Shown here: positions 1 to 61,096 of the stretch, piece by piece
Layout of the letters: each line of letters begins with the position of its first letter
Numbering within the stretch: the first letter of the stretch is position 1
NCBI GenBank assembly: GCA_031405355.1
Contig: JANNIV010000266.1
Span: forward strand, 1 to 62,688
Direction of reading: 5' to 3'
Source of the DNA: Nitrospira sp.
GTDB lineage: Bacteria; Nitrospirota; Nitrospiria; Nitrospirales; Nitrospiraceae
DNA: 62,688 nt
Position numbers and translations under genes: made by a program
Notes under the pieces: model-generated
The model's input: only the letters and a program-made list of their open reading frames with translations
Databases searched by the model: none
What the model was told of the DNA's origin: nothing

Positions 1-19
1 AGTACTTGAGGTTGATCAT
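1..19 (-). CDS. 5' end of a HicB-like antitoxin gene (partial, runs off the window)
   Basis: A minus-strand ATG at 19-17 lies 1 nt after the hicA stop (TAA c ATG ATC AAC CTC AAG TAC = MINLKY...). This is the usual hicA-hicB tandem layout. Only 6 codons are visible. Confidence 0.25.
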
Positions 20-20
20 G

Positions 21-218
21 TTACTCCTCCCGATGCTTGAACCCAGCTGCGCTAAGGATTGCGTGACAAGTCCCGGTCGGCACTTCCCTTGAGCCATGAT
101 AATCAATACGGACCAGACGTTCTATCCCGGGCTTGCCATAATAACGAATGGAGCCCTTTTCCTTGATGAGTGTAAACCCATTGTGTTCCAACATCCTTAC
201 CAGCTCAGAGAACTTCAC
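21..218 (-). CDS. hicA: HicA-family type II toxin (small mRNA interferase)
   Basis: 65-aa ORF MKFSELVRMLEHNGFTLIKEKGSIRYYGKPG...IDYHGSREVPTGTCHAILSAAG. Size and the HG-x-x-E-x-P-x-GT motif are typical of HicA/YcfA toxins. Confidence 0.8.
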   Translation of the reverse strand: MKFSELVRMLEHNGFTLIKEKGSIRYYGKPGIERLVRIDYHGSREVPTGTCHAILSAAGFKHREE

Positions 219-318
219 GAAGAACCTTGGCTCGGTGTTTGGTGGTAACGCGCATCATTCAGAATCTTTCAACGAGTCAACGCATTATGTTCTTCGATCC
301 AAAACCTGTCAATCCGAG

Positions 319-464
319 AGATAGAAGAAGGGGTTCAGGCTGAAGTGGGTAGGCTGAAGTCCGAAGGGATTCAGGCTGAAGGCCGGAGTTCGTGATTCAA
401 AGTTCCGGATACTTCAGCCTTAACCCCTTCAGCCTGTGCCCCTAGTCCCCAACCTATCTACCTG
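319..464. repeat. Mosaic hairpin element, GGCTGAAGG/CCTTCAGCC family, copy 1
   Basis: The left half carries AGGCTGAAG three times (337-345, 351-359, 373-381). The right half carries CTTCAGCCT twice (412-420, 427-435) around a CCGGA...TCCGG centre. It starts with AGAAGAAGGGGTTCAG (323-338, the same 16-mer as 1392-1407). It ends with CCTATCTACCT (453-463), a terminal motif shared with 1562-1572, 5136-5146, 5628-5638 and 7256-7266. Confidence 0.8.
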
Positions 465-557
465 CGGCATCCTACAAATAGAAAGCCTAACCCCAATGGG
501 GGATTTTATGTATTGACCATGCCCTGTAGCATGCGAACTACGAGGCTCTACACAGGG

Positions 558-733
558 TCTAGGTAGAAGGTAACGACTCAGGGGCGCAGGCGAAGACTAG
601 GGGTACAGGCTGAAGGCTGACGGAAGGTCTGTCTGGTCTATTTGGTTTGTTTGGTTTATTTGGTTGAACCAGATAGACCAGATGACCAGACAGACGAGAC
701 AGACCTGCTTTCATGCTGAATCCCTTCAGCCTG
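558..733. repeat. Mosaic hairpin element, copy 2 (GGCTGAAGG-type arms enclosing a 9-bp array)
   Basis: GACTAGGGGTACAGGCTGAAGG (593-614) is the inverted partner of CCTTCAGCCTGTGCCCCTAGTC (426-447). The right end is CCCTTCAGCCT (721-731). The reverse complement of 615-712 matches 5525-5622 at 97 of 98 positions (hand alignment). Confidence 0.85.
626..705. repeat. 9-bp-periodic palindromic array (5 + 4 units)
   Basis: GGTCTGTCT GGTCTATTT GGTTTGTTT GGTTTATTT GGTTGAACC | AGATAGACC AGATGACC AGACAGACG AGACAGACC. The right units are the reverse-complement type of the left units. One unit is 8 nt. Confidence 0.9.
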
Positions 734-764
734 TATTTCGTAGCACTGTATGATGCGAATACAC

Positions 765-1427
765 ATGTCACGATATGCATTGCTGGTGGCTCTGTTGGTG
801 ATGCTCTGTGCCACGGAGACCATGGCCTATACGATTGGATTCGATGGCCTGACCAGATCTAATCTGAGTACGTTCACTGGTTCATACGAAGAAGATGGTT
901 ACACCGTCGAAGCGACAAAGGGTCAATGGTTCGAAGCACATATCTTCGGCAGTTCTATTCCCGCTATTGGCTCCGGCCCACTCTATAGCTCAGATCTAGG
1001 TATGTCGCAGGTTACCATAACCGAGGGCGGGGAGCGGTTCATATTCCAGGGCGTTGACCTTACAAGCAACAGCGCCCTCGGAACCACATACACGATTCAA
1101 GGCTTCCTAGCGACAAGTGGCGAAAATCCGATTTTCACAATACCTGTTGAGGTTGAGGCAATTAATCGCTTCGAGTCGAAACTGTTCAGCAATTTAGAAT
1201 CTGTGGACAAGCTGACCATCACCGGAACTCGCGGCAGGGGTGTCACCTCATTCAATATCGACAACATCCGAGTCGGGCATTACATAGACCCAGGCTCATG
1301 TCCAGGTTCCGATCCCAATTGTCCAGCTGTCCCCGAGCCAGCGTCCATCATGCTCCTCGGCGTTGGTCTGGCTGGGGTTGAGGTCTGGAGAAGAAGAAGG
1401 GGTTCAGTCCGAAGGGGTGAAGGCTGA
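765..1427 (+). CDS. Secreted protein with C-terminal PEP-CTERM sorting signal
   Basis: Signal peptide MSRYALLVALLVMLCATETMA (ATG 765; the ORF opens at 750). The C-terminus VPEPASIMLLGVGLAGVEVWRRRR has the PEP motif, a TM helix and an Arg cluster. The last 12 codons and the stop lie inside repeat copy 3. Confidence 0.85.
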   Translation: MSRYALLVALLVMLCATETMAYTIGFDGLTRSNLSTFTGSYEEDGYTVEATKGQWFEAHIFGSSIPAIGSGPLYSSDLGMSQVTITEGGERFIFQGVDLTSNSALGTTYTIQGFLATSGENPIFTIPVEVEAINRFESKLFSNLESVDKLTITGTRGRGVTSFNIDNIRVGHYIDPGSCPGSDPNCPAVPEPASIMLLGVGLAGVEVWRRRRGSVRRGEG

Positions 1428-1572
1428 GGAAGATAGGCTGAAGGGGGAAGTCGGATTAGCGGAATGGGCGACGGTTCGAGGTCCGAAGTTCGAGGTTCTA
1501 GATTTCAGGAACTTCGAACCGGGAACTTCGAACCCCTAGCCCCCAGCCTGAACCCCTTCAGCCTATCCACCT
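1392..1572. repeat. Mosaic hairpin element, copy 3 (overlaps the 3' end of the PEP-CTERM gene)
   Basis: The left end is AGAAGAAGGGGTTCAG. The 23-mer GGCTGAGGAAGATAGGCTGAAGG (1422-1444) is identical to 5056-5078. The core is GGTTCGAGGTCCGAAGTTCGAGGTTC ... GAACTTCGAACC twice (1509-1520, 1523-1534). The right end is CCCTTCAGCCTATCCACCT. Confidence 0.85.
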
Positions 1573-1634
1573 GAACCCCTGTGAGGAAACAGAAATCTCT
1601 ATGTCGAATCTGAACCAGGCCGTAGCATGAATCT

Positions 1635-1769
1635 GGTCTGTTCGGTCTATCTGGTCTATCTGGTCTCTCTGGTTCATCCGGTCAGTCAGGGTTAACCAAA
1701 CGCACGAGACAGACCCGACAGACCAAACAGACCGAACAGACCGAACAGACCAGATAAACGAGACAGATT
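1635..1769. repeat. 9-bp-periodic palindromic array (7 + 8 units, no phase slip)
   Basis: GGTCTGTTC GGTCTATCT GGTCTATCT GGTCTCTCT GGTTCATCC GGTCAGTCA GGGTTAACC | AAACGCACG AGACAGACC CGACAGACC AAACAGACC GAACAGACC GAACAGACC AGATAAACG AGACAGATT. The array ends 17 nt before the ATG at 1787. Confidence 0.9.
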
Positions 1770-1786
1770 ATCCTGCAAGGAGTTTT

Positions 1787-4078
1787 ATGGTGATGAACCG
1801 CTATTGGCCTATTTCAGCCCTTGTGCTTCCGCTGCTGTTGATGGCCGTGAGCGGGTGCACGAAGGAAACAGCAGCGACGAAGGCGGCTCATCACAAGGAG
1901 CGAGCGATTGCCTATTTCGACAAGGGCGAATATCGCGAGGCGATCGTCGAACTGAAGAACGTCGTGCAAATCGCTCCGGACGATCATGACGCTCATTATC
2001 GGATGGCGCTGTCCCACCTGAAGCTGGGAACGGTCCCGGATCTTCAGCAATCGTTTAAGGAATTGTCCGCTACTGTCGAGTTGAACGCCGGGAATCAGGA
2101 CGCGCAGTTGAAGCTCGGACAGCTTCTGCTTCTGGCCAAGGAACCGGCAAAAGCCCGCGCGCATGCCGAGATCGTCCTGACCTCGGCGCCGGATAGCAAA
2201 GAGGGTGTGATCCTTCGCGGGGCAAGCTTGCTGAACGAAGGAAAAATCCAAGAAGGCATCGCAGAACTGAAGCGGGCGATCGTGCTGGATCCCCAGAACG
2301 TCAACCTCTACATCGATCTGGCCCGGGCCTACGTGCACATCAAAGATTATGGCTCGGCTGAATCGGTGTTGCAGCAGGCGTTGCAGGCCAATCCCCAATC
2401 GATCGAGGCGCGGTTCGCCCTCGGCGATCTCCATCTCATCAACAGGAAAGCCGACCTTGCCGAAGCCGAATACAAGCGCGCGCTCAGCGATGCGCCGGAT
2501 CGGCCGGAACCTCGCGTCAAGCTGGCCGGCTTCTATGCGTCGGTCAATCGCCTTGCCGATGCCGAAGCGACCTACTCAGCCTGGGTCCAATCTAAGCCGC
2601 AAGACGATGCTCCCTTGCTGGCCTTGGGGGATTTCTATCGAGCCACAGACCAACTCGACAAAGCCGCAGCTACGTATCAAAACGCGCTTGCCGTCAATCC
2701 GAAATCGACGGCCTCGCGGGATCGGCAGATTGCCGTACTCATCGCCAGCCACAAGCTCGATGAAGCAGAGCGACAGACCACCGCCATTCTGCAAGCGAAC
2801 AGCAAGGACTCCAGTGGCCGTCTCTTCGAGGCTCAGCTCAAGCTGGCCCGTGGACAGGTCGACAATGCCTTGCCTCTGCTTCAAGCCTTGAGTCAGGAGG
2901 AACCCCGCTCACCGGCCCCGCATCATTTCTTGGGCGTGGTCTATGCGAAGAAGGGCGATCTTCCCCAAGCCGTTCAGGAACTCAAAACGGTCATCGATCT
3001 GGCGCCGAATGCGATCGAATCGCATGCAGTTCTGGCCTCCGTCTATCTCACCCAAGGATCGGCAGACCTTGCCCTCGAACAAGCGCAGGCCGTGCTGCGC
3101 CTCAATCCCCGGAGCGTCCAGGCTGCCACGATCATGGGAGAGTCCTATCTGCGGAAAAACGATACGGCAAAGGCCGGCCAGGTCTTTGAATCGATCATCA
3201 AGGTCTCGCCGAACCATGAGATCGCGCATCACCGGCTGGGATTGATTGCGCGCTCCAACAAGAACCCTGTCGAGGCCCTGGCGCATTTCGAACAGGCGCT
3301 CAAGGCGAAGCCGGATTTCATTGAGCCGCTCGCACAGATTGCCACCATCAAGGCCAGCCAGGGCAAATTGGCCGAGGCGCGTGATCGCATCAAGCAACAT
3401 CGCGAGTTGGTCCCCAAGAACCCGCTGGTCTATAACCTGCTGGGCCAACTGTTCACTGCGACCAAGGAGTATGACCAGGCGGAGGCTTCGTTCAAGCAGG
3501 CGATCGCGCTGAATGACGCGATCCTTGAGTCCTATACCGGCCTTGCAGGACTGTACTTGCAGACGAAACGATTGGACGAGGCGATCCGGGAATATGAAAC
3601 CGCCCTGGCGAAAAATCCCAAGCTGGCCCCGGCCCATATGATGATCGGCATGATTCACGAGTCGCGCCAGCAGTATGATCAGGCGCAGGCACGTTATCAG
3701 GAGGCGGTCCGCATCAATCCACGGTTCGCTCCGGCAGCCAACAACTTGGCCTGGCTCATGGTCGAGCGCGGGGGGAACGTCGATGTCGCCTTGGGGTACG
3801 CGCAGACGGCGAGGGAGGTGACGCCGACCGATCCAAACGTTGCGGACACACTTGGGTGGATCTATTACCAGAAGAAGGTCTATCTAAAAGCGGTCTCCCT
3901 CCTGAAGGAAGCAGCCGATCAACTCCATGAGAATCCGGTGATCTTGTACCACTACGGCATGGCTCAGTATAAAAACGAAAATAAACCTGAAGCCCGCAAA
4001 GCTCTAGAGAAGTCGCTACAACTCAACGCGAACCATCCTGGCGCATCCGAAGCGAAGGCGACGTTGGCGGAGCTTTGA
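1787..4078 (+). CDS. TPR-repeat lipoprotein, PEP-CTERM-system PrsT-like
   Basis: 763 aa. Lipoprotein signal with lipobox LLLMAVSGC. The rest is wall-to-wall TPR units (repeated A..Y..AL.L.P motifs). It sits next to PEP-CTERM substrate genes, as in PEP-CTERM/exosortase loci. Confidence 0.85.
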   Translation: MVMNRYWPISALVLPLLLMAVSGCTKETAATKAAHHKERAIAYFDKGEYREAIVELKNVVQIAPDDHDAHYRMALSHLKLGTVPDLQQSFKELSATVELNAGNQDAQLKLGQLLLLAKEPAKARAHAEIVLTSAPDSKEGVILRGASLLNEGKIQEGIAELKRAIVLDPQNVNLYIDLARAYVHIKDYGSAESVLQQALQANPQSIEARFALGDLHLINRKADLAEAEYKRALSDAPDRPEPRVKLAGFYASVNRLADAEATYSAWVQSKPQDDAPLLALGDFYRATDQLDKAAATYQNALAVNPKSTASRDRQIAVLIASHKLDEAERQTTAILQANSKDSSGRLFEAQLKLARGQVDNALPLLQALSQEEPRSPAPHHFLGVVYAKKGDLPQAVQELKTVIDLAPNAIESHAVLASVYLTQGSADLALEQAQAVLRLNPRSVQAATIMGESYLRKNDTAKAGQVFESIIKVSPNHEIAHHRLGLIARSNKNPVEALAHFEQALKAKPDFIEPLAQIATIKASQGKLAEARDRIKQHRELVPKNPLVYNLLGQLFTATKEYDQAEASFKQAIALNDAILESYTGLAGLYLQTKRLDEAIREYETALAKNPKLAPAHMMIGMIHESRQQYDQAQARYQEAVRINPRFAPAANNLAWLMVERGGNVDVALGYAQTAREVTPTDPNVADTLGWIYYQKKVYLKAVSLLKEAADQLHENPVILYHYGMAQYKNENKPEARKALEKSLQLNANHPGASEAKATLAEL

Positions 4079-4080
4079 AA

Positions 4081-4166
4081 CAGGCTGAAGGGGTAAAGGC
4101 TGAAGTTCTTGGTTCGATGTTCTGGGTTCGAAGTTCCTGAAACCTCGAACTTCGAACCTCGAACCG
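4081..4166. repeat. Mosaic hairpin element, copy 4 (starts 3 nt after the TPR gene stop)
   Basis: CAGGCTGAAGGGGTAAAGGCTGAAG is followed by a perfect 12-bp stem, GGTTCGAAGTTC (4125-4136) / GAACTTCGAACC (4147-4158), with a 10-nt loop. No right-hand CTTCAGCCT arm is present. Confidence 0.75.
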
Positions 4167-4300
4167 GCGCCCGCCCCTGCGCCCCGCGCTGCCCCCGTCA
4201 AATTTCTTTACACCCCTCTTTTAGCCTCGCCCGTTTCGTAACTACTTAATATTCCAGGCAATCACAAAGACCTGTGCGAATCAGTCATAGAGTGAGGCCA

Positions 4301-4337
4301 AGATCTCTGTATAGATTTTTTACAGAGTTTGGATCTC
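4301..4337. promoter_or_regulatory. Imperfect palindrome, candidate enhancer (UAS) for the downstream sigma-54 promoter
   Basis: AGATCTCTGTA-TAGATTTTT-TACAGAG-TTTGGATCT. The inner 7-bp arms CTCTGTA/TACAGAG and outer AGATC/GATCT arms surround an A/T-rich core. It lies about 75-110 bp upstream of the -24/-12 element at 4409-4424. Confidence 0.3.
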
Positions 4338-4407
4338 AGAACAACTCTGACTCGTATGAGAAATTACAACTGCTTGATAATACTACGTAGCGTAGGATGG
4401 AAAGGAT

Positions 4408-4425
4408 CTGGCACAGAGTCTGCTT
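4408..4425 (+). promoter_or_regulatory. Sigma-54 (RpoN) -24/-12 promoter candidate
   Basis: CTGGCAC-AGAGT-CTGCTT matches the consensus TGGCAC-N5-TTGCW. GG is at 4410-4411 and GC at 4422-4423, exactly 12 nt apart. It lies about 95 nt upstream of the ATG at 4518. Confidence 0.5.
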
Positions 4426-4517
4426 AGGGGTTACGTAGTGATACGTGACGAAGCTGTCCATCCTGTTCTGGCGCCGTGACGGGTTTCGCAACGCAGACGC
4501 TTTTAGAAGTGAGAATC

Positions 4518-5075
4518 ATGAAACGGTATCTGTGGCTTGTCGGTCCATTGGTAATGCTTTGGGGTGCTGAGGCAAGGGCGTCGAACATCGAATTCGAAAC
4601 CCATCACAATTCAAAGACAGACGGAGCCTATACTTCGTCCAACCAAGACGATTTCATCGGCAATTGGCCCCAAGGTACATGGCCTTTTGCAGGAAGTCCC
4701 ACCGATACGACGCGCCATATGTATTTCGCCGGCGCAACTGGGCAGTCGCAGGATGCCGAGGAACACCGCACCCACGAGAGGGATAAATTCAAAGATTTCG
4801 AATACAAGGACCGTGGTCGCAATGGGGATGACGATGACAAGTACAAGGTAAAAGGCGACTATCAGTATTCCAAGCACGATCGGGATTCTGGTCGGGATTA
4901 TGACCGGGACGATAAGAAGGACTATGATCGCGATAAGGATTACCCTAAACATCACGATAAATATCCTAAAGATCACCATGAGTATCAAAAAGTTCCCGAG
5001 CCAGCATCCCTCTTGCTCCTCGGCGCCGGGTTGGCTGGAATCGGGATCTGGAGGAGGCTGAGGAAGATAGGCTGA
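4518..5075 (+). CDS. Secreted, highly charged low-complexity protein with PEP-CTERM sorting signal
   Basis: Signal peptide MKRYLWLVGPLVMLWGAEARA (ATG 4518; the ORF opens with GTG 4476). The D/K/R/Y/H-rich body reads ...DRDSGRDYDRDDKKDYDRDKDYPKHHDKYPKDHHEYQK. The C-terminus VPEPASLLLLGAGLAGIGIWRRLRK is a PEP-CTERM signal. Confidence 0.85.
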   Translation: MKRYLWLVGPLVMLWGAEARASNIEFETHHNSKTDGAYTSSNQDDFIGNWPQGTWPFAGSPTDTTRHMYFAGATGQSQDAEEHRTHERDKFKDFEYKDRGRNGDDDDKYKVKGDYQYSKHDRDSGRDYDRDDKKDYDRDKDYPKHHDKYPKDHHEYQKVPEPASLLLLGAGLAGIGIWRRLRKIG

Positions 5076-5146
5076 AGGTTTCGGAACTTCGACCTCCAAC
5101 CTCCAACCTCCAACCTTCAGCCTGAATCCCTTCGGCCTATCTACCT
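5055..5146. repeat. Mosaic hairpin element, copy 5 (overlaps the 3' end of the second PEP-CTERM gene)
   Basis: Contains GGCTGAGGAAGATAGGCTGAAGG (5056-5078), GGAACTTCGACC, the heptamer CTCCAAC three times (5094-5114) and CTTCAGCCTGAATCCCTTCGGCCTATCTACCT. Confidence 0.85.
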
Positions 5147-5166
5147 AAATAGCTACCTTCACGCAG

Positions 5167-5203
5167 CGCCAGTCCTCGCAAGGGGGCTGGCTTTTTGTAT
5201 TTT
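5167..5203 (+). terminator. Rho-independent terminator candidate
   Basis: GCCAGTCC-TCGCAAGG-GGGCTGGC stem-loop followed by TTTTTGTATTTT. It lies downstream of the PEP-CTERM gene and repeat copy 5. Confidence 0.6.
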
Positions 5204-5267
5204 GAGCCGAGGGGGACTGGCTCCGGCTGAGAAGGGGGACAGTCCCGGTGCGGGACAGTCCCCGCCG

Positions 5268-5477
5268 GTGCCTGCAATTCGGCTCACTGCTGAGCGCTGG
5301 ACGCACATCACTGAAGAACACTGTGAATTGGCCGGACTGCGTGCAGATGTACTAGAGACGGTGCTGCGACCAGAGCGTATCCTCCTCGGAGGAGATGAGG
5401 AACTGATCGCGCTCCGTGAATTGGAACAAGGGAAACATCTCGTGGTCGTGTATCGGGAACGGACCGAATCACCCTAA
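5268..5477 (+). CDS. Small conserved hypothetical protein, possibly 3'-truncated
   Basis: GTG 5268 gives (M)PAIRLTAERWTHITEEHCELAGLRADVLETVLRPERILLGGDEELIALRELEQGKHLVVVYRE... I recall this small-protein family normally continuing past the VVVYRE block. Here the frame stops about 25 nt before repeat copy 6. Confidence 0.4.
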   Translation: MPAIRLTAERWTHITEEHCELAGLRADVLETVLRPERILLGGDEELIALRELEQGKHLVVVYRERTESP

Positions 5478-5502
5478 CTACTTCTCGGTTCAACCTCAGA
5501 CG

Positions 5503-5638
5503 GTAGGCTGAAGGGGTTCAGGCCGAAAGCAGGTCTGTCTCGTCTGTCTGGTCATCGGGTCTATCTGGTTCAACCAAATAAACCAAACAAACCAAATAGA
5601 CCAGACAGACCTTCCGTCAGCCTTCAGCCTATCTACCT
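5503..5638. repeat. Mosaic hairpin element, copy 6 (inverted near-identical twin of copy 2)
   Basis: GTAGGCTGAAGGGGTTCAGGCCGAAAGCA + 9-bp array + TTCCGTCAGCCTTCAGCCTATCTACCT. Matches the reverse complement of 615-712 at 97/98 positions. Confidence 0.9.
5532..5611. repeat. 9-bp-periodic palindromic array (5 + 4 units)
   Basis: GGTCTGTCT CGTCTGTCT GGTCATCG GGTCTATCT GGTTCAACC | AAATAAACC AAACAAACC AAATAGACC AGACAGACC. Confidence 0.9.
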
Positions 5639-5723
5639 AGTCGCCGGAGCGCCGAATTCACTCGATTTCGTTGACGGAAACAGCAGGTTCTGCCATCCTG
5701 GCACAAACCGCTGGGGAGGCATC

Positions 5724-7025
5724 ATGGCGCAGAAAAAAGAGCAGGCACGAAAAATTGCAGTTGTTGGACTTGGCTATGTGGGCCTTCCTATTGCTGTCGC
5801 ATTCGGGAAGCAGCAGCATGTGATCGGTTTTGACATCAACAAGGCCAAGATTGCTGAACTACAGAAGGGGCTTGACCGTACAGGGGAAGTGTCTGCCGCG
5901 GATCTGAAAGCGACGGACATTCAATATACCTATCAGCCCAGCGAGCTCAAAGCGGCTGATTTTATCATCGTGGCCGTGCCCACGCCTATTAATGAGGCCC
6001 TTCAGCCGGATTTGACGGCGCTTCGCAAATCGTCAGAATTGATCGGGGCCAACCTGGCGCCAGGATCGATCGTGGTCTTCGAGTCGACGGTCTATCCTGG
6101 AGCCACTGAGGAAGTGTGCCTGCCGATCCTCGAGCAGGCCTCCGGGATGAAGTGTGGAGTGGACTTCAAGCTCGGCTATTCTCCTGAACGGATCAATCCA
6201 GGCGATAAGGAACATCGGCTGGAAACCATCATCAAGGTGGTGTCGGCCCAAGACGACGCATCGCTGGAGATCGTCGCCAAGACCTACGAACTCGTGGTCA
6301 AGGCGGGGATCCATCGGGCTTCTAGTATCAAGGTGGCGGAGGCGGCGAAGGTGATTGAAAATACTCAGCGGGATCTGAACATCGCGCTGATGAACGAGTT
6401 GGCGCTCATTTTCCATCGGCTCGGGATCGATACGAAGTCGGTCCTGGAGGCTGCGGGAACCAAGTGGAACTTTCTCAAGTTTTCACCGGGATTGGTCGGC
6501 GGACATTGTATCGGGGTCGACCCCTATTACCTGACGAGCAAAGCCGAATCGGTGGGCTATCACCCCCAGGTGATTCTCGCAGGCCGGCGCATTAACAATG
6601 GCATGGGAAAGTTTGTAGCAGAGCAGACGATGAAGCGCTTGAGTGAGCTGGCTCGGCCGGTCAAGGAGCTCAAGGTGGCTGTCTTGGGACTCACCTTTAA
6701 AGAGAACGTGCCGGACTTACGCAACAGCAGGGTGCCGGACATTATTCGCGAACTGCGCGAGTATGGGGTGCAAGTCCTGGTGCATGATCCGATCGCGCAA
6801 ACAGAAGAGGCGTTCGAAGAGTACGGGATACATCTAAGCCAGTGGGACGATCTCAAAGATATCGACGGAATGGTTGTGGCAGTCGCGCATCGTAAATATG
6901 TCGATATGGGGATGCAGAAGTTGCTCAAGCCTCTCCGCAGTCAGCAGGAGGGGGTGGTGATCGATGTGAAATGTCTGCTCGATCCGGCGAAATTGCCAAA
7001 GACGCTGAAATACTGGCGGTTGTAG
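5724..7025 (+). CDS. Nucleotide-sugar 6-dehydrogenase (UDP-glucose/GDP-mannose dehydrogenase family; UDP-N-acetylhexosamine dehydrogenase-like, TviB/WbpO type)
   Basis: 433 aa. N-terminal Rossmann motif VVGLGYVGLPIAVAFG and catalytic Cys block GGHCIGVDPYY. Three-domain length typical of the family. Confidence 0.9.
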   Translation: MAQKKEQARKIAVVGLGYVGLPIAVAFGKQQHVIGFDINKAKIAELQKGLDRTGEVSAADLKATDIQYTYQPSELKAADFIIVAVPTPINEALQPDLTALRKSSELIGANLAPGSIVVFESTVYPGATEEVCLPILEQASGMKCGVDFKLGYSPERINPGDKEHRLETIIKVVSAQDDASLEIVAKTYELVVKAGIHRASSIKVAEAAKVIENTQRDLNIALMNELALIFHRLGIDTKSVLEAAGTKWNFLKFSPGLVGGHCIGVDPYYLTSKAESVGYHPQVILAGRRINNGMGKFVAEQTMKRLSELARPVKELKVAVLGLTFKENVPDLRNSRVPDIIRELREYGVQVLVHDPIAQTEEAFEEYGIHLSQWDDLKDIDGMVVAVAHRKYVDMGMQKLLKPLRSQQEGVVIDVKCLLDPAKLPKTLKYWRL

Positions 7026-7044
7026 CAGCCCCCGATCAGGTGTT

Positions 7045-7266
7045 TAGGCTGAAAGCACTAGGCTGAAAGCACTAGGCTGAAGGGATTCAGACTGAAGGCT
7101 GAAGTGTTCTGAACTTCGAACCATGACCTTCCCTGTCCGCCTCTAACTCAGAACTTAGAACCCAGAACTCAGAACTTCTCTGCCCGTCTCGCTCTCGCTT
7201 CACGACCTTCTCGACTCCCACGACCCCTAAAAACCTTCAGCCTAAAAATCTTCAGCCTATCTGCCT
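7045..7266. repeat. Mosaic hairpin element, copy 7 (largest)
   Basis: TAGGCTGAAAGCAC twice in tandem (7045-7072), then TAGGCTGAAGGGATTCAGACTGAAGGCTGAAG and GAACTTCGAACC. A heptamer run follows: CAGAACT TAGAACC CAGAACT CAGAACT (7149-7176). The element ends with CCTTCAGCCTAAAAATCTTCAGCCTATCTGCCT. Confidence 0.85.
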
Positions 7267-7648
7267 GCAATTCCAGATTGGCTCTTGCAATATTGCACGT
7301 GGTTTTGCGTCCATCGCCTCTTTGTTAGGGTCTCCCCCTCCTTAAGCGTCATATACAGTTTCCCTACAAAATACTAATGTTTGCCATGCGTGACGGAGTT
7401 CAGGTGGACCAGGCCCCCGCGATCGGACAAGTGATAAAGGTCTATGTGCCGGCGCCCATCACCGTTGCATAGACTTCGACACTTTCGGAAGCGCGGTGGT
7501 CCAGGAAGTTGCGTGTGGCTGGAACGACGACGCGGGTTACTACTTAGCCAACCGCAAGTTATGTTCTAAGTCAAAGATTGGAATGTGAGTTATGGGGAAA
7601 ACAACAGGCGCTCTGTATGCGGAAGACGGTTCTGAGTTGGGTTACTAC

Positions 7649-8317
7649 ATGAGGTCAGCTATGAGCATGATGACGGGTGTGTGTTCGATCCTCGGCATCG
7701 TGTGTTTGACAGCGACAACGGTGTTGGCAGAACCGACGCCGTCCGTCATGAACCTGCCTAATGAATTTGCACAGGAGAAGCCATCGTTGATCGTGACGAC
7801 GGACTACATCATTGGGCCGGAAGATGTGCTGGATATCACCGTATGGAAAAGCCCGGATCTTTCTAAAACGGTCCAAGTTCGTCCCGACGGCAGGATTTCT
7901 TTGCCGTTGATTGGAGATGTGGATGCAGTCGGCCAAACCAGCGCGCAGTTGACAGAGCGAATTTCTACTCGGTTGAAGGCCTACGTGGAGAGTCCAGCTG
8001 TGTCGATTGTTGTGAAAGAAGTCAACAGCTATGCCATTTTCGTATTGGGCGAAGTCGTCAAGCCGGGACGCTATCCGTTGAAGAGCAAGACGACGTTGCT
8101 TCAGGCTATAACGCTGGCCAGCGGATTTACGCCGGTCGCGTCCAGAAATAAGATCGTCATTTTTCGTTTTCCCAAGGAGGGAGACTCCTTGATGAAGATC
8201 AAGGCAAGTTTTGACGACATTGTCTTGCGGGATGGGATCAATCAGAACATCGAGCTGAAGCCCGGCGATACCATCGTCGTGCCGTCCGAGTCGATGGTGG
8301 TCATGCCAAGCAGGTAG
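7649..8317 (+). CDS. Polysaccharide export protein, Wza/EpsE-like (periplasmic Poly_export + SLBB)
   Basis: Signal peptide MRSAMSMMTGVCSILGIVCLTATTVLA. The ORF opens at 7592, so the start is uncertain. Poly_export block: IGPEDVLDITVWKSPDLSKTVQVRPDGRISLPLIGDVDAVGQT. Confidence 0.85.
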   Translation: MRSAMSMMTGVCSILGIVCLTATTVLAEPTPSVMNLPNEFAQEKPSLIVTTDYIIGPEDVLDITVWKSPDLSKTVQVRPDGRISLPLIGDVDAVGQTSAQLTERISTRLKAYVESPAVSIVVKEVNSYAIFVLGEVVKPGRYPLKSKTTLLQAITLASGFTPVASRNKIVIFRFPKEGDSLMKIKASFDDIVLRDGINQNIELKPGDTIVVPSESMVVMPSR

Positions 8318-8400: not shown

Positions 8401-9000
8401 ATGCGCGTCCTAACGAGTTGGTTTCTTATTGCGGTCTTGGTGGCCGGCACGGCTGGCTGTGTAGGAGACCCGGTCACATACAAGGTCGATATGGTTGCGC
8501 CTAGTGAGTTTCTCTTAGGTCCGGAGGATGTGCTGAATGTGACCATCTGGAAAAATCAGGATCTTTCCCGTGAGGTGGTGGTTCGTCCGGATGGAATGAT
8601 CTCGATGCCGTTGGTGGGAGATATCCAGGCTACCGGGCTCACAGCCAATTTGTTGGCGAAACGTATCGCCGAACGTCTGACCGAATATCTGGCCTCGCCG
8701 ATCGTGTTCGTTCAGGTAAAGGAAGTGAATAGTTACTACATCTATGTCATGGGCGAGGTGGGGAAGCCGGGCAAGTATTCGCTGAAATCCTACGCCAACG
8801 TCATGCAGGGGATTTCTCTCGCCGGAGGGTTCACGCCCTATGCCAAGAAGAACAAGATCAAGGTGCTGCGTGTATCGGCAGAGGGTCCAAATGGCAAACA
8901 TCAGATCGAAATTCCCGTGCAGTATGACGAGATTCTCAAGGGAAACGCGGTTCCTGGAAATTTCTTCCTTCGGATCGGCGACGTGATTGTGGTGCCGTAA
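8401..9000 (+). CDS. Second polysaccharide export lipoprotein, Wza-like paralog
   Basis: Lipobox LVAGTAGC. LGPEDVLNVTIWKNQDLSREVVVRPDGMISMPLVGDIQATGLT is paralogous to the preceding gene. Confidence 0.85.
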   Translation: MRVLTSWFLIAVLVAGTAGCVGDPVTYKVDMVAPSEFLLGPEDVLNVTIWKNQDLSREVVVRPDGMISMPLVGDIQATGLTANLLAKRIAERLTEYLASPIVFVQVKEVNSYYIYVMGEVGKPGKYSLKSYANVMQGISLAGGFTPYAKKNKIKVLRVSAEGPNGKHQIEIPVQYDEILKGNAVPGNFFLRIGDVIVVP

Positions 9001-10373: not shown

Positions 10374-12746
10374 GTGAAAATTATGACTATGCAAGCCGTC
10401 ACCCCCCAAGACCTTGTGAAGATCGTGCTCCAGAGAAAATGGTGGATCCTTGCCAGCCTCGTCATCTGTGTGACGGCGGCCAGCGTGGCATGGACATTTT
10501 CCCCAAAGAATTTCAAGTCGACGGTCGTGGTGACGATTGACAGTCCGAGAATCGCCAAGGAGTACGTCAAAGGGTTATCGCAAGCCCAGGAGGGAAGATA
10601 CAATGATGACCCGATAGCTATCGTGATACAGCAAGTCGCGCTTGGCCTCACAAACAAATCCATTCTCATGCCGGTTCTTGACACTCTGAAGCCTTACTCC
10701 GGTGCAGAGGCTGAAGGACAATCTTCAGACCAGCAGATGAAACGACTCCGCAAATCTCTGGTGGTTGGAAAACCCAAAGAGAAAGATGGGGCCGTGGGAG
10801 TGGGTGTTGCAATATCGTACACCCACCAGGATCCTCATATGGCTCAAGCGGTGGCGTCGCTTTTGGCTGTGAAGCTGCAGGAAGACAATCTCACGCGCCG
10901 TGAAGGGCTCGTGGTGACCACCACGGAATTTATTTCTGTCGAGCTCGATCGGGTGAAGGGCGATCTGGAAGCCAAAGAACGTGCGGTTTCCGATTTCAAA
11001 AGAGCGTACATGGGAGAGCTGCCGCAGCAGATGGAGTCCAGTCTTCGCACCCTTGACCGATTACAGACGGATCTCACGAATTCTACTGAATCGTTGAACA
11101 AGATGGGGGATCGACTGACCGCGTTGGAAAAGTCGATCAGGGAATTTTCTGATAATTCCCTGACCGGGATTGATCGGGATCGGAGAGTGGGCGACACCAG
11201 GCCGATCGATCCTCGGCTCATCAAACTTCGAGAGCTGAAACAAAAGTTGCAAGAACTCTTGGGAACCTACAAGGAGAGCTATCCGGACGTTGTGCAGATA
11301 CGACAAGAGATTCGTCAGATGGAGTTATTGCTGCAGCTCGATGGCAGTCAGCTCGGTGTGAGTGAGACGGCAGCGGGGAAGGCCGATGAGAATGGTGGAA
11401 TCGGCCGCAAGCAGACCGATCCGTACTTGCGCGAGTTGATGCATGAGCGCAGCGAAACGAAGAGGGAGATCGCCGCGCTCAAGGAAAGGCAAGCCAATAA
11501 TATTCGGCAGATCCAGGAAATAGAGGGTCGAGTCGAGCGTATGCCAGGGAGGGAGCAGCGATTGGCGGTGTTGCTCAGAGACCATGAGAATATGCAGAAG
11601 GCCTATCAATCCCTTCTCGATAAACGGACGAATGCCAGAATGTTGGCGAACTACGAAAACCAACAATTCGGCGAACAATATCGAATTATCGAGGCGGCCA
11701 ATTTTCCCGTTTCGCCGGAGCCTCCCAATCAAATCCATTTCCTGCTTGGCGGTCTTCTGGTTGGATGTCTCGTTGGATTTGGATCGGCCATTGGGGCTGA
11801 GTTCATGAAAACCGGGTTCCGGAGGCCGGAAGATGTCGAAAAGTATCTCGGTTTACCGGTCATCGCATCTATTCCCGCATTTGCAAGTGTGACAAGCGGG
11901 ATCGCCATAGGGCAGTCACTTGCTGCGCTGACAGGTCCAAACATGCTGGCGAAATTGCCCGAGGGCGCGCCTTCCTATCACGGCGATCGAAAGAAGGGCG
12001 TCGGCGGGACGTCTGGTGGGAAAAGATACGGCGGCTCTGTACAGAACTTGCCCGCGAAATTCCACTTGATCGCCAAGTGGGTGCCGGCTTCGCTGATGGC
12101 TGAACAATATCGTGTTGGGTCGACGCGGCTGGTCATCATGACCTCAGAGAAAAGAAATGTGGTTACGTTGGTGACTAGCAGCGTGATGGGCGAAGGGAAA
12201 ACAACGACGGCGGTGAATCTCGCGTATATCCTCGCCCACGATTTGAACAAGTCTACCTTGCTGATCGATTGCGACTTTAAACGCCCAATGGTGCACGACT
12301 ATATGGGAATTCCCGCGGGGCCTGGCATAGGGGATGTGCTGCAGGGGGGTGCGATTCTTGAGAACTGTCTTCATCAGTGCGACGGTCTGCCGCTATGGAT
12401 TTTGCCCACCGGCTCTCCCGCTGTCCGTCCGTCCGGTCTTTCGGGCATTCAGTATGTCAAGAAGTTCTTGCCGGCGCTTAGGGCACGCTACGACCATGTG
12501 ATTTTAGATGCGCCTCCGGTTCTTCCGTTGGCCGACGTGAACGCGCTCAGCGGCTTGGCCGACATGACAGTCTTCGTCGTTCGCGCTGGTGGGACAAGTC
12601 AGGACATCGTGAAAAAGGCGTTGGACACGCTTGGCGAGACTGCCGATGCAGCGGGTATCGTTTTGACGCAGGTGGAAATGGAGTATGCGCCGTATCTCAT
12701 GTACACAGCGGCTTACACAAATGAAGATGTCAGAAGTCACGCATAA
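10374..12746 (+). CDS. Fused chain-length determinant (Wzz domain) and BY-type tyrosine kinase (Wzc-like; EpsF+EpsG equivalents in one protein)
   Basis: 790 aa. N-terminal TM, long coiled-coil periplasmic domain and a second TM (FLLGGLLVGCLVGFGSAIGA). Walker A is SSVMGEGKTTTAVNLA and Walker B-like is HVILDAPPVLPLAD. C-terminal Tyr cluster: YAPYLMYTAAYT. Confidence 0.85.
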   Translation: MKIMTMQAVTPQDLVKIVLQRKWWILASLVICVTAASVAWTFSPKNFKSTVVVTIDSPRIAKEYVKGLSQAQEGRYNDDPIAIVIQQVALGLTNKSILMPVLDTLKPYSGAEAEGQSSDQQMKRLRKSLVVGKPKEKDGAVGVGVAISYTHQDPHMAQAVASLLAVKLQEDNLTRREGLVVTTTEFISVELDRVKGDLEAKERAVSDFKRAYMGELPQQMESSLRTLDRLQTDLTNSTESLNKMGDRLTALEKSIREFSDNSLTGIDRDRRVGDTRPIDPRLIKLRELKQKLQELLGTYKESYPDVVQIRQEIRQMELLLQLDGSQLGVSETAAGKADENGGIGRKQTDPYLRELMHERSETKREIAALKERQANNIRQIQEIEGRVERMPGREQRLAVLLRDHENMQKAYQSLLDKRTNARMLANYENQQFGEQYRIIEAANFPVSPEPPNQIHFLLGGLLVGCLVGFGSAIGAEFMKTGFRRPEDVEKYLGLPVIASIPAFASVTSGIAIGQSLAALTGPNMLAKLPEGAPSYHGDRKKGVGGTSGGKRYGGSVQNLPAKFHLIAKWVPASLMAEQYRVGSTRLVIMTSEKRNVVTLVTSSVMGEGKTTTAVNLAYILAHDLNKSTLLIDCDFKRPMVHDYMGIPAGPGIGDVLQGGAILENCLHQCDGLPLWILPTGSPAVRPSGLSGIQYVKKFLPALRARYDHVILDAPPVLPLADVNALSGLADMTVFVVRAGGTSQDIVKKALDTLGETADAAGIVLTQVEMEYAPYLMYTAAYTNEDVRSHA

Positions 12747-13797: not shown

Positions 13798-14699
13798 TCT
13801 GTTCTGGCGAGATAGCTCAGGGGAAGTTGAGGCATGTTCTGTCGTTTGATGTCGAGGAGCATTTTCAGGTTGCGGCATTCTGGTCGGCTGCGAGAAGGCG
13901 TGAGTGGAATCAGCTGGGGAGCCGGGTCGAGCGCAATACGAGGAAAGTCACCGAGCTGCTATCGGAGCATTCGACTAAGGCTACATTTTTCATTCTTGGG
14001 TGGGTTGCAGAACGGCATCCGGAAATGGTGAGAAATCTGGCGCAACAAGGTCATGAAATTGCGTCGCATGGGTATGGCCACGAACTCGTTCACACACAGA
14101 CGCCTGCTCAATTTCGTGAGGATGTCAGGCGGTCAAAACACATTTTGGAAGACCTGACTGGCAGGCAAGTTATGGGATACCGAGCGCCGAGTTTCTCGAT
14201 TACGTCTCGAACGAGATGGGCCATTTCCATCTTGATTGAAGAAGGGTATCGGTATGATTCGAGTATCTATAACCGATTTCAAGGCACCCAGGGGATCACC
14301 ATGGCCGGGGCTGGACCGTACCAACTTGAGACCGAGACTGGAACAATTTGGGAGGTGTCTCCGTCAACAATGAACGTCTGTGGATTTCAGCTGCCTGTCG
14401 CCGGTGGGGGATATTTTCGCCTCTTTCCCTATGCCGCTTCGAAAATGTTTCTGGAGAATCTTGAGAAGCAGGGATCGCAGCTTGTCATGTATTTCCATCC
14501 TTGGGAACTTGATTCTGAGCAGCCGCGCATGGATGGGCCGTTGCTCTCAAAGGTCCGTCATTATCTGAATCTCAGTAAGACGGAACAGCGTCTAAGGTGG
14601 TTGCTGAGGGATTTCTCCTTTGGCCCCATCAACCAGGTCGTTCAGCATGTTCGGTATATCTTTGAAAAACAGGGGGACCGTTCACATGCAACTGTGTAA
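13794..14699 (+). CDS. Polysaccharide deacetylase, PEP-CTERM/exosortase-locus subtype (NodB domain + DUF3473-like C-terminus)
   Basis: HVLSFDVEEHFQV, FFILGWVAERHPEMV and GHEIASHGYGH blocks. TTGA overlap with the previous gene. An alternative TTG start at 13827 is possible. Confidence 0.85.
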   Translation: MICSGEIAQGKLRHVLSFDVEEHFQVAAFWSAARRREWNQLGSRVERNTRKVTELLSEHSTKATFFILGWVAERHPEMVRNLAQQGHEIASHGYGHELVHTQTPAQFREDVRRSKHILEDLTGRQVMGYRAPSFSITSRTRWAISILIEEGYRYDSSIYNRFQGTQGITMAGAGPYQLETETGTIWEVSPSTMNVCGFQLPVAGGGYFRLFPYAASKMFLENLEKQGSQLVMYFHPWELDSEQPRMDGPLLSKVRHYLNLSKTEQRLRWLLRDFSFGPINQVVQHVRYIFEKQGDRSHATV

Positions 14700-14769
14700 A
14701 AAGAGCGCGGTCGTCCATCTCGACCCCAACAGCGCGAAAGCGAACGATTCGGGCGAGTCGGAATGGGAT

Positions 14770-15264
14770 ATGAAGTGTTGGTATGCGGTGAGTACGAAAA
14801 TGCGCTCTGAAGTCACGGCCTGCGCCAGCCTCGACCGCTTGGGCATAGAAGTCTTTCTTCCGATGCTGAGGGAGCGGAAAGCGCTTCGTGGAGAGTGCTG
14901 TTTAAGGACATCGCCCTTGTTCCCAGGGTATTTGTTCGCGAAGTTTGACGCGTCGAGTCAGTTGCGAGCGGTGGCGTATGCCCAGGGAGTCAAGAGTATC
15001 GTGACATTCGGCAGCGGCCCCTCCATGGTCGATGAGTCGATTGTTCACGCCATTCGTAGCCAAGCCATAAATGGAGCGATTGAATTCTCTGAGAACCGGT
15101 TTATTCCCGGGCAAGTGGTACGAATACAGGATGGACCATTGTGTGGGTTGGAAGCAGTCTTCGAAAAGAAATTAGATGGGGTCAGCAGGGTAGTGCTGCT
15201 CCTGAAGGCCATTTCATTCCAGGCTCGAGTGATCCTTGACTCTCAGCTTGTTGTAAATAGGTGA
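14770..15264 (+). CDS. NusG-family transcription antiterminator paralog (RfaH/UpxY-like)
   Basis: MKCWYAVSTKMRSE...FLPM...SPLFPGYLFAKF forms the NGN domain. GQVVRIQDGPLCGLEAVFEKK forms the KOW motif. The ORF opens earlier (14620/14686), but the family normally starts a few residues before the WYA motif. Confidence 0.75.
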   Translation: MKCWYAVSTKMRSEVTACASLDRLGIEVFLPMLRERKALRGECCLRTSPLFPGYLFAKFDASSQLRAVAYAQGVKSIVTFGSGPSMVDESIVHAIRSQAINGAIEFSENRFIPGQVVRIQDGPLCGLEAVFEKKLDGVSRVVLLLKAISFQARVILDSQLVVNR

Positions 15265-59249: not shown

Positions 59250-59980
59250 GTCAGACATCTCCTTGTAAGTGGAACCCACTCGTCACGCTGTTGAATCCGT
59301 CACATACGGTTTCAGTTCCATACCTGCCGGCTTGTCTGTAGTCAGCCCTTCCAGTTCCTTATCTCATCCCTACGACTCTACCGGAAACGGTTGACATGGT
59401 GAGGCCGGCAAGGCCGCTGCCGCCGTGGTGGTACGTCTCAGGCAGGGTGACAGCCGAGGCTCCGCTAGCGTTCCCCGTTACGGTACTATTATAGGTGTCG
59501 ACCGTCAACATTTCGTCACACTTTCGGTTATGGCTCCGTTGGCTGTGTGGGGCGCTGGACTAAGGGGCAGTCGGGTTGCGCCATCACTGGCATTCCCGCT
59601 CAAGGCTTCTCACCGATGTTGATGTGCTGTGCCAGTGGAGAGAATGAGCAAAAGGGGTGCCCAGGCTTCACGCGGGACGGATCGGCTCTGAAATTTTGAA
59701 TTAATATGTCAAAACAATAGCTTGAGATATTCAACCTCCATCATATGTGGGCGAAGGAGAGACAGAACGAGTGAATATACAATGGAAAGAGGTGTTTACC
59801 TGAAGGCTCCAGGCTATACATGATGCGGGAAAATACGAATCGGGCCATTCAACAGCCTTCCAGTTTCTACGACCGTTGGGTTTCCAAACGTCCAGCCTAT
59901 CTACTTGAATAGGTCCATCAATAACTCCGAGAATTTTCATGGTATTTGCGATGCGAGAAGCGTAAAAGAAGATCCATCAT

Positions 59981-60985
59981 ATGCGTATTCTTATTACAGG
60001 CGGAGCCGGGTTTCTTGGAAGTCATCTCTCCGATGTGTTGGTGCAGTCTGGACATTCCGTGATCTGCATGGACAACCTCCTTACCGGACGGGTCGAGAAT
60101 ATCGCTCACCTGATCGGGCAGGAGCGATTTTCTTTTGTCAAATACAATGTGTGCGATTATGTGCATGTGGAGGGTCCGCTGGACGCGGTTATGCATTTCG
60201 CCTCGCCTGCGAGCCCGCAAGACTACCTCGAATTTCCTATTGCCACGCTGAAGGTTGGCGCCTTAGGCACGCATAAAGTTCTTGGACTCGCCAAGGCAAA
60301 GGGGGCGCGGTTTCTCTTGGCCAGCACGTCGGAAGTCTATGGGGACCCGTTGGTGAATCCTCAGCCTGAATCCTATTGGGGCAACGTCAACCCCCTCAGC
60401 CCCCGTGGCGTATACGACGAGGCCAAGCGTTTTGCAGAAGCCCTCACGATGGCCTACCATCGCTATCATGCGGTCGATACCAGAATCGTTCGCATCTTCA
60501 ATACGTTCGGGCCGCGCATGAGGCCGAATGACGGACGCGTCGTGTCGACCTTCATCGTTCAGGCGCTGCAAGGGAAACCGTTGAGCGTCTTCGGCGATGG
60601 ATCTCAGACCAGGAGTTTCTGCTACGTGGACGACTTGGTCCGCGGGATCACCGGGTTACTGCTTCTGGAATCAGATAGGACAGTCGAACAACGGACCGAT
60701 CGCAAGTTCCTCATGACGCAAAAGAAGGACGCCAACGATACCAGCATGCACGATCCTGTGAATATCGGGAACCCACAAGAACTGACGGTCCTAGAGATCG
60801 CAAAATTGGTGTTGAAACTCACCAACTCAGCAAGCCTCATCACCTACCATCCGTTGCCCGCCGATGATCCCAAGGTCAGACGCCCCGATATCAGTCGGGC
60901 TCGTACTCTCCTGAAATGGGAGCCTCAGGTACAGTTGGAAGATGCCCTCATACGCACGATCGACTACTTCAAGAAAGTGATCTAG
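59981..60985 (+). CDS. UDP-glucuronate decarboxylase (UDP-xylose synthase), extended SDR
   Basis: [58 protein letters not shown]. Confidence 0.92.
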
Positions 60986-61000
60986 CAGCATAAGAATGCC

Positions 61001-61096
61001 GTTGTCTGGTCTATCTGGTTTGTTTGGTTGATTTGGTTCATCTGGTTAGTTTCGTTCAACCAAAAAACCAAACAAACCAAATCAACCAGATCAACC
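61001..61096. repeat. 9-bp-periodic palindromic array (6 + 4 units), distal copy
   Basis: (GTTGTCT) GGTCTATCT GGTTTGTTT GGTTGATTT GGTTCATCT GGTTAGTTT CGTTCAACC | AAAAAACC AAACAAACC AAATCAACC AGATCAACC. Lies between the UXS gene and proA. Confidence 0.9.

Follow-up and report, generated by a model that had tools for sequence, protein, structure and literature searches.

MITEs (miniature inverted-repeat transposable elements) of the Correia (NEMIS), ERIC, RUP and Nezha types are small, non-coding and hairpin-forming; they are often co-transcribed with the genes beside them, and some of them alter mRNA processing. Heptamers arranged in tandem arrays are likewise familiar from the short tandemly repeated repetitive (STRR) sequences of cyanobacteria. 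We consider here a family of mosaic palindromic repeats present in a contig of Nitrospira sp. (GenBank assembly GCA_031405355.1, contig JANNIV010000266.1; the window, in what follows, is the whole of this stretch of 62,688 nucleotides), where it occupies the gaps between the genes that head a locus for PEP-CTERM proteins and exopolysaccharide (EPS). We think it very likely that these repeats are decayed members, remodelled by slippage, of a MITE family that crosses phyla and has ends of the type found in the ISBst12 group of the IS66 family of insertion sequences (ISs). Correia, ERIC, RUP and Nezha elements have other termini, other target duplications (TA for Correia) and other parent IS families, and none is known to have arms built of phased 7- or 9-nt units.

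Several further systems are similar in part. The repetitive extragenic palindromes (REPs) of enterobacteria and pseudomonads, organized in bacterial interspersed mosaic elements (BIMEs) or REPINs, resemble this family in that they are intergenic, palindromic and mosaic and lie at 3' gene ends, and both could in principle stabilise upstream mRNA; REPs differ in that they lack terminal inverted repeats (TIRs) of this kind as well as any target duplication, spread by means of the Y1 transposase RAYT, and are largely lineage-specific. In Geobacter metallireducens, paired tandem repeats have been described as 'global regulator binding sites' of classes 1 to 4, with IHF or HU proposed as their ligand (Aklujkar et al., 2009, PMC2700814). 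They too are intergenic and multicopy, with tandem units of 7, 8 or 9 nt that have opposite-strand partners at variable distance, and ISs accompany some classes; yet their units are MTYCTGA, GTTGCTYN and TCTCCGTS, and neither termini nor target duplications are described for them (PMC2700814). The TAACTGA heptamers of Beggiatoaceae and Cyanobacteria share with the present family an intergenic tandem arrangement, a patchy spread across phyla and a TGA-containing 7-mer, so that the arrays overlap only the very ends of open reading frames (ORFs); by contrast, they are direct repeats with no palindromic partner, TIR or target duplication, and lie mostly just upstream of start codons (MacGregor, 2015, PMC4679880). 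Finally, the ends of our family recall ISs of the ISBst12 group such as ISDge4, an IS bounded by the inverted repeats GTGACTACTCAGCA/GTAACTGCTCAGCA with a direct repeat of 8 bp (PMC12898284).

Counting confirms that the gaps at the locus head are filled by a dense family of mosaic palindromic repeats, of which the EPS core is free. The motif GGCTGAAG, searched on both strands, occurs 23 times against 2.82 +/- 1.68 in shuffled sequence, 19 of these copies falling within 338-7257; CCTATCTACCT, with at most one mismatch, is found 8 times (0.53 expected) and GAACTTCGAACC, with at most two, 17 times (6.6 expected). Between 219 and 7591 there are six intergenic gaps of 80 bp or more, and each contains the family, as do both gaps beyond 59280; none of the 18 gaps between 8318 and 53857, the EPS core, does (one-sided Fisher p = 6e-7). 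Isolated matches to GGCTGAAG at 10709, 33140 and 56253 number three, the figure expected by chance. A sequence-only reading of the window had listed seven elements filling most of the gaps at the locus head, and the motif excess, the gap distribution and folding bear it out: all seven, taken as whole intervals or sub-intervals, form long imperfect hairpins (z from -2.9 to -8.5 against dinucleotide shuffles), and the perfect 12-bp stem that it had noticed does pair 4125-4136 with 4147-4158. Two hairpins (1620-1767 and 61005-61096) and a decayed copy at 59783-59915 had escaped it, the last of which contradicts its statement that no copy lies between 7.3 and 61 kb while leaving the absence from the EPS core intact. 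It had also read the GGTCT... arrays as heptamer runs. Tandem Repeats Finder gives the arm units periods of 7, 9 and 14 nt, and these arrays are those of period 9, with the unit GGTCTRTCT; the true heptads are GGCTGAA, AACCTCG, ACCTCCA and AACTCAG. Nor do the elements finish at CCTATCTACCT, as had been proposed: conservation extends outward to a real terminus, ...CCTGAGTAGTTAC, the mirror of which on the left is GTAACTACTCAGG.

Complete members of the family are found in other genomes. We scanned one genome per species, in tiles of 8 kb, for the terminal 18-mer CCTTCAGCCTATCYNCCT, and found it in at least 117 tiles, at least about 96 of which hold clear elements, with heptads on both arms or an extended terminus. 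A complete member begins GTAACTACTCAGGT(N5)GGCTGAAGG and ends in the reverse complement, CCTTCAGCC(N5)ACCTGAGTAGTTAC; the terminal consensus is GTAACTACTCAGGTgGaTAGGCTGAAGG at both ends (92 scored ends), and complete copies, 78-220 nt long (n=37), have TIRs of 13-28 nt. Directly outside the termini stand 8-bp direct repeats, for example GATACGAT, GATTATAG, GAACTAAT, GAATATAT and AAATTTAC, which are perfect in 11 of the 37 complete copies and match at seven positions in 7 more, with a mean of 5.27 matches where permuted flanks give 2.47 +/- 0.22; the A+T content of the duplications is 72%. TIRs together with a target duplication of fixed length are indicative of DDE transposition, and their small size and lack of any gene make these elements MITEs, while ends that start with GTAA, together with a duplication of 8 bp, indicate the IS66 family. 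Since the elements have no coding capacity, and in particular no PF03050 transposase, they would be derivatives of ISBst12/IS66 and not members of that family as insertion sequences. A literature search with the raw motifs GGCTGAAGG/CCTTCAGCC returned primers and unrelated sequences only; we found no description of this MITE family, which appears to be new.

The resemblance to the ISBst12 group can be followed in detail. On the Geobacillus plasmid pHTA426, a single-ORF IS66-family copy (ISGka4-family) ends in GTATCTATTCAGCC/GTAACTATTCAGCC and is flanked by the duplication GACGAGTT; its transposase matches PF03050, zf-IS66 and DUF6444. Homologues of this transposase led to 92 metagenome loci and, among them, to 70 complete ISs of 1.4-2.0 kb (most of 1.5-1.6 kb) with the end consensus GTAACTaCTCAGgC, perfect 8-bp duplications in 11 of the 70 and, in the copies inspected, the stop codon of the transposase within the right terminus. 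The first 12 nt of the MITE are reproduced exactly by 42 of the 140 IS ends, and its first 13 nt by 22. The MITE and ISBst12-group ISs (ISBst12, ISDge4 and the pHTA426 copy) have in common the terminal 12-13 nt, GTAACTACTCAG(G), and the A+T-rich 8-bp duplication. At the IS-like locus L201, of which only the right end was found, the heptads CAGCCTA CAGCTTA CAGCCTA stand directly inside the right terminus, so that subterminal heptads also occur next to a transposase gene in at least one case within this group. There the likeness stops: the family has no transposase gene, its copies are a fraction of the size of an IS, its arms are made of GGCTGAA-type heptads or 9-mers, the whole element is a hairpin, and it spans several phyla. 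If the assignment holds, it links the very widespread and little-studied ISBst12/IS66 group to small elements of several environmentally important phyla, and phased heptad arms would offer a route to asking how transposases of this type recognise their ends. Within the group itself, one IS (L135 671-754 and L136 515-598) has a tandemly duplicated 42-nt left terminal region (GTTACTGCTCAGGCACACCAGGAAGTTAATCATTCCCTGGTG, twice). At L201 and L197, a conserved coding region (...LTNNTRFLVLPWV...FKGTCYRAANW...) precedes the ISBst12-like transposase ORF by about 330 nt, which suggests either a two-gene variant or a fixed insertion context.

A number of observations weigh against this assignment. No parent IS with GGCTGAAG heptads was found: the 92 ISBst12-group loci have the terminal 13-mer and lack the GGCTGAAG subterminal region. 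In the window a single copy keeps a good terminus (GTAACGACTCAGG at 570-582, one mismatch, in element B) and no copy shows a recognisable target duplication; with termini so eroded, the MITE origin rests there on subterminal and architectural homology with complete copies elsewhere. No pair of filled and empty sites was found either, all elements of the window being present in six close strains. The hairpin arms stay paired despite sequence divergence, which neutral decay alone does not explain. The family data consist of 8-kb tiles chosen by a single 18-mer, so that tile counts are lower bounds, and some taxonomic outliers may be binning errors in metagenome-assembled genomes (MAGs); indeed L110, binned as Aestuariivirga, has the Nitrospira subfamily.

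We also looked for a mobility gene near the elements. Clustering of the 724 ORFs neighbouring elements in the 117 tiles listed brought out no recurrent transposase or mobility gene, and solo element ends adjoin ordinary genes. No two ends of an element were found more than 421 nt apart, except for a pair at L064 (2.9 kb); it encloses genes for a J-domain-like protein and an HU/IHF-like protein as well as ligA, which reads through an element end, and we reject it as a kilobase-sized copy, no transposase being present. An IS66 transposase fragment at L109 had to be discarded as a partner for another reason, its ends being of the classical GTAAGCGCTCAA type and hence unrelated. That truncated gene (L109 3340-4287, with a GTAAGCGCTCAA-type end) lies 2 kb from a family element, and both IS66 subgroups are thus met within one Desulfobacterota MAG. 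The gene for a '23S rRNA IVS protein' (PF05635) was dismissed as well; it is not recurrent in other loci, and a similar-looking case at L109 is a dUTPase. At L010 this four-helix-bundle gene (183-539, minus strand) starts some 25 nt from a solo element end (563-580). Toxin-antitoxin cassettes nearby made us consider integron attC sites; read by eye, the ends GTAAC.../...GTTAC depart from the R''/R' consensus, and no integrase came to light. In the plasmid collection PLSDB, no full element was matched and consensus arms were matched at chance level only.

The history of the copies in the window can be read by comparison with relatives. Of the genomes found, that of an uncultured Nitrospira MAG comes closest, at about 92% identity, and the protein of the nucleotide-sugar dehydrogenase gene, used as query, retrieved six metagenome contigs of very close strains in which the same elements are present. 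Strains 96-99.5% identical to the window differ from it within elements by whole units, of 14, 7 and 14 nt: a single 14-nt unit at 7059-7072, a single TCGAACT heptad after 4143 and two CTCCAAC heptads at 5090-5103. This pattern points to slippage. At L001 and L005, the 9-mer hairpin of 1630-1760 is replaced by a different, T-richer 9-mer hairpin between flanks that remain about 97% identical. (The replacement resembles the hairpin at 61005-61096, and the arms are complementary in both alleles.) Orthologous elements in Nitrospira RSF3 (79% identity) and ERP119705 (92%) have changed module content and keep strong folds (z -8.9 and -6.7 in other Nitrospira species). The orthologue of element H at L041 is shorter and far more symmetric (z -8.9), and that of element E in RSF3 has both arms. 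Because their termini are mostly lost and orthologous sites exist in other Nitrospira, the copies of the window are old and largely inherited.

These observations fit a scenario in which a transposase acting in trans, in this case from the IS66 family's ISBst12 group, moves a short non-coding segment, which inserts into A+T-rich targets of 8 bp, and these become duplicated. The segment's arm units of 7, 9 and 14 nt would then be gained or lost through replication slippage, and slippage, together with nesting of copies and recombination between them, could create the appearance of interchangeable modules. Copies have gathered at the head of the EPS locus, where the genes are small, loosely packed and set apart from one another, and are kept out of its tightly packed operons, perhaps through mere tolerance, perhaps through selection.

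The distribution of the family is wide. Among the matches listed (about 96 tiles), Nitrospirota account for 32, Desulfobacterota or unclassified 'Deltaproteobacteria' for about 46 and anammox Planctomycetota for 3; Nitrospinota, Methylomirabilota, Bdellovibrionota, Dehalococcoidia and others have one tile each, and the G+C content of the flanks ranges from 0.31 to 0.64. Should the family really move between Nitrospirota, Desulfobacterota and anammox bacteria, it would be an unusually promiscuous MITE. Genes next to the elements in these tiles are of ordinary and diverse kinds; their largest cluster appears, from one representative sequence, to encode signalling proteins of the sensor-kinase/response-regulator type. 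The sequence-only reading had tied the elements to the substrates of exosortase. Tested through the C-terminal motif at all loci, genuine PEP-CTERM genes adjoin elements only at L015, the RSF3 orthologue of the locus, among the matches listed; and in Nitrospira RCB (L031) copies pile up upstream of the EPS export genes, where no PEP-CTERM gene is present and the neighbours, read by eye, are a PIN/VapC-like gene, a gene for a LuxR-type regulator and another small gene. The tie is not borne out. The unusual density that had been remarked upon is real: L015 and L031, which both cover the same region, hold 17 and 18 copies of GGCTGAAG, against 1-9 in the other tiles listed, and the local pile-up is special in this respect. 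For the study of EPS and exosortases, then, the repeats are not a signal specific to PEP-CTERM genes, although the edge of the locus that they mark is variable and cassette-like.

Among other ways of understanding the elements, one concerns their consequences and not their identity, and is compatible with a MITE origin: as substrates for recombination they would delimit swappable cassettes, of PEP-CTERM and toxin-antitoxin genes, at the head of the EPS locus. Gene content does vary there. Positions 549-907 and 3004 onward of L001 are collinear with 1-359 and 457 onward of the window, and the 2.1 kb that L001 has in addition, with BrnT-type (toxin-antitoxin) genes and two more elements, has its breakpoints inside the element at 319-464. 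At L005 the upstream gene set is yet another one, while in RSF3 nothing corresponds to PEP-CTERM gene 2 in the interval from prsT to the dehydrogenase gene, the slot being taken by a fragment that looks, by eye, like a disrupted BrnT-type toxin gene. Two units, one of about 105 nt and one with a terminator-like hairpin, are moreover duplicated locally. The comparison extends over a handful of strains, the junctions are not those that a clean reciprocal crossover of identical repeats would leave, and variable regions of small genes gather mobile DNA anyway, so that causality could be reversed. There is limited support for an edge of the locus that is prone to recombination and cassette-like, in line with the hotspot suggested by the sequence-only reading; this does not make the elements its cause. 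We hold it possible, if doubtful, that the elements play this part.

The ~105-nt unit (...AGAAAGCCTAACCCCAATGGGG...CATGCGAACTACGAG...) recurs between adjacent elements, at this locus only (L001 1-120, 935-1040 and 3012-3115; L015 5463-5556), and has no match in Rfam. Upstream of PEP-CTERM gene 1 (window 1-460, L001 1-3004, L005 1-1750), the small genes that vary are HicA, BrnT with a partner, and DUF4258; in RCB, the corresponding place upstream has, by sequence, the PIN/VapC-like gene.

A more elaborate proposal, which we judge rather unlikely, would see in the phased arms expandable arrays of binding sites, for the transposase or a host protein, that double as an all-frame stop and a hairpin, the Nitrospira pile-up having been co-opted as a set of cassette boundaries. 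If true, this pile-up would amount to an integron-like shuffling zone without an integrase, where small surface-protein and toxin-antitoxin genes are swapped and separately expressed. The stop property, at least, is there. Three GGCTGAA heptads in a row hold TGA in all three frames, and the element being palindromic, both strands read inward through such heptads, so that an ORF that enters an element stops within a few codons. Copies can therefore overlap the ends of genes, and both PEP-CTERM genes take their stop codons from elements: the left arm of element C encodes the final 12 codons and the TGA (1425-1427) of the first, and that of element F (AGGCTGAGGAAGATAGGCTGA) the tail RLRKIG* of the second (TGA at 5073-5075). 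The overlap with both gene ends had been noticed from the sequence alone, and so had the start of an element after the stop of the TPR gene, which we place 3-4 nt beyond it. For TAACTGA repeats, too, stops in all three frames have been pointed out (MacGregor, 2015, PMC4679880). In annotation, the elements explain odd C-terminal tails and stops of genes that enter them, including both PEP-CTERM genes, as well as spurious ORFs running through hairpins; they probably explain, besides, some contig breaks and some strain-level length variation in Nitrospira and Desulfobacterota MAGs. At L031 4224-4300 and around 1787 in the window, ORF callers run through 9-mer hairpins and add false N-terminal extensions, of which MVSLVYLVHLVYRVSLVQPNKQDKPNK on the export protein is one.

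We consider improbable a role of the elements in dedicated cis-regulation of the PEP-CTERM/EPS locus, with hairpins acting as 3'-end protection, processing sites or attenuators that set the expression of exosortase substrates, a meaning close to the transcript punctuation first suggested for them. Very stable hairpins do stand at each gene boundary of the head region, the core lacks the family, in two further Nitrospira species no tile listed is denser than the one over this region, and pairing is kept in orthologues of changed sequence; but the family sits beside unrelated genes at no fewer than some 96 loci across phyla, the RCB cluster does without PEP-CTERM genes, and element H is badly eroded in the window (z -2.9). 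Furthermore, in a terminator search of the window no hairpin of the family was followed by a convincing T-run, a few low-scoring consensus matches of 6 pairs inside elements having weak T-containing tails and a total at shuffle level; the sole strong terminator-like site of the region (5168-5191), downstream of PEP-CTERM gene 2, lies outside the elements. With Rfam 15 at gathering thresholds, no match was obtained in the window or on the elements of four other loci with well-preserved elements. The terminator-like site is not part of the repeat family, and with its neighbouring sequence (window 5147-5300) it is repeated at L015 (1760-1901, 5649-5691 and 6725-6767), where it looks like a duplicated cassette-boundary unit.

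Arrays of binding sites in a simpler sense, for a nucleoid protein (IHF/HU) or for a translational regulator of the host, the latter being the kind of ligand suggested for TAACTGA heptamers, would account for short tandem units in strict 7- or 9-nt phase and have precedents in the paired hepta-, octa- and nonanucleotide sites on opposite strands of G. metallireducens (PMC2700814) and in the intergenic TAACTGA heptamers (PMC4679880). Yet no protein is implicated, the unit sequences vary with module and lineage while the termini are the conserved part, and four motifs of the family (two terminal 9-mers and two heptad 9-mers) are absent from the G. metallireducens supplements (PMC2700814), so that we give this explanation very little chance. 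As for the BIME-like class under which the elements were first placed, which would make them short extragenic palindromes that a domesticated Y1 transposase (RAYT) has spread into protein-binding, transcript-stabilising mosaics as in enterobacteria, it is a most improbable one in spite of the mosaic, modular, palindromic and exclusively intergenic architecture and of a GTAG tetranucleotide within the conserved end CCTGAGTAGTTAC, for TIRs of 13-28 nt with 8-bp target duplications are hallmarks of DDE enzymes and not products of RAYT, the termini agree with IS66/ISBst12 ends, GTAG is placed beyond the palindrome's 3' side and not 5' of a short hairpin, and no Y1-transposase-like family recurs among the 724 neighbouring ORFs of the 117 tiles listed.

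Table 1. Repeat elements, free-standing hairpins and genes of the window, in order of position (z, folding score).
Feature	Coordinates	Strand	z	Description
Element A	319-464		-6.5	Fold -70.5 kcal/mol; left GGCTGAAG units at 338, 352 and 374; small GTTCG/CGGAAC-type core; right CTTCAGCC units at 412 and 427; CCCCTAG module; CCTATCTACCT end at 453-463
105-nt spacer unit	465-569	+		Between elements A and B; 3x in L001, 1x in RSF3 (L015)
Element B	570-745		-8.3	Ends just before or at start of PEP-CTERM gene 1; GGGGCGCAGG...CTAGGGG module; GGCTGAAGG at 608-616; 9-nt-period hairpin 618-713; right arm CCTTCAGCC at 723-731
PEP-CTERM gene 1	750-1427	+		
Element C	1392-1572		-7.6	GTTCGAR-heptad core; right end CCTTCAGCCTATCCACCT
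Free-standing 148-nt hairpin	1620-1767		-6.9	9-nt period; GGTCTRTCT units on one arm, complement on the other
prsT	1787-4078	+		XrtA-system TPR lipoprotein PrsT; stop codon 4076-4078
Element E	4081-4200		-3.0	Begins 3-4 nt past prsT stop codon; two left GGCTGAAG units; GGTTCGAAGTTC/GAACTTCGAACC heptad hairpins 4102-4165; GC-rich tail replaces right arm
Possible terminus relic	4238-4250	+		GTAACTACTTAAT; weak match, 3 mismatches being chance level over whole window
PEP-CTERM gene 2	4518-5075	+		
Element F	5055-5156		-4.7	Core of three CTCCAAC heptads, one in other strains; right end CCTATCTACCT, then terminus relic AAATAGCTAC
Intrinsic-terminator-like site	5168-5200 (best 5168-5191)	+		Hairpin then TTTTTGTATT, directly after element F
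91-aa ORF		+		Between PEP-CTERM gene 2 and dehydrogenase gene
Element G	5474-5640		-8.5	Possible left-terminus relic CTAACTACT at 5474-5482, containing TAA stop of ORF 5202-5477; GGCTGAAGG at 5506; 9-nt-period hairpin 5531-5612; right end CCTTCAGCCTATCTACCT at 5621-5638
Nucleotide-sugar dehydrogenase	5724-7025	+		
Element H	7036-7266		-2.9	Upstream of EPS export operon; TAGGCTGAAAGCAC in 2.6 copies, one 14-nt unit above other strains; additional GGCTGAAG units; AACTCAG heptads; right half eroded; end TCTTCAGCCTATCTGCCT
Decayed copy of ~170-nt Nitrospira subfamily	59783-59915	+		40-nt internal deletion; ends in CCAGCCTATCTACTTGAATAGG
Free-standing hairpin	61005-61096		-7.8	9-nt period, TTTGGTTNA units

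The first of the two free-standing hairpins fills the gap upstream of prsT, and the second lies between an epimerase/dehydratase-like gene (59981-60985) and the next gene, while the decayed copy was identified by alignment to L080, L110, L019 and L025. In the first 7.6 kb of the window all genes are on the plus strand except one for a HicA-like toxin (21-218, minus strand), an assignment made through a 96%-identical counterpart at L001; a direct NCBIfam scan of the ORF of the window gave no match. The XrtA-type genes for EPS export and chain length follow the nucleotide-sugar dehydrogenase gene on the plus strand, and the EPS core opens with a tandem pair of XrtA-type polysaccharide export (Poly_export/SLBB) genes, at 7592-8317 and 8401-9000. 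Further on, within the EPS operon, a NusG-domain (PF02357) paralogue at 14620-15264, matching L002 13155-13733, is possibly a specialised antiterminator for this long operon.

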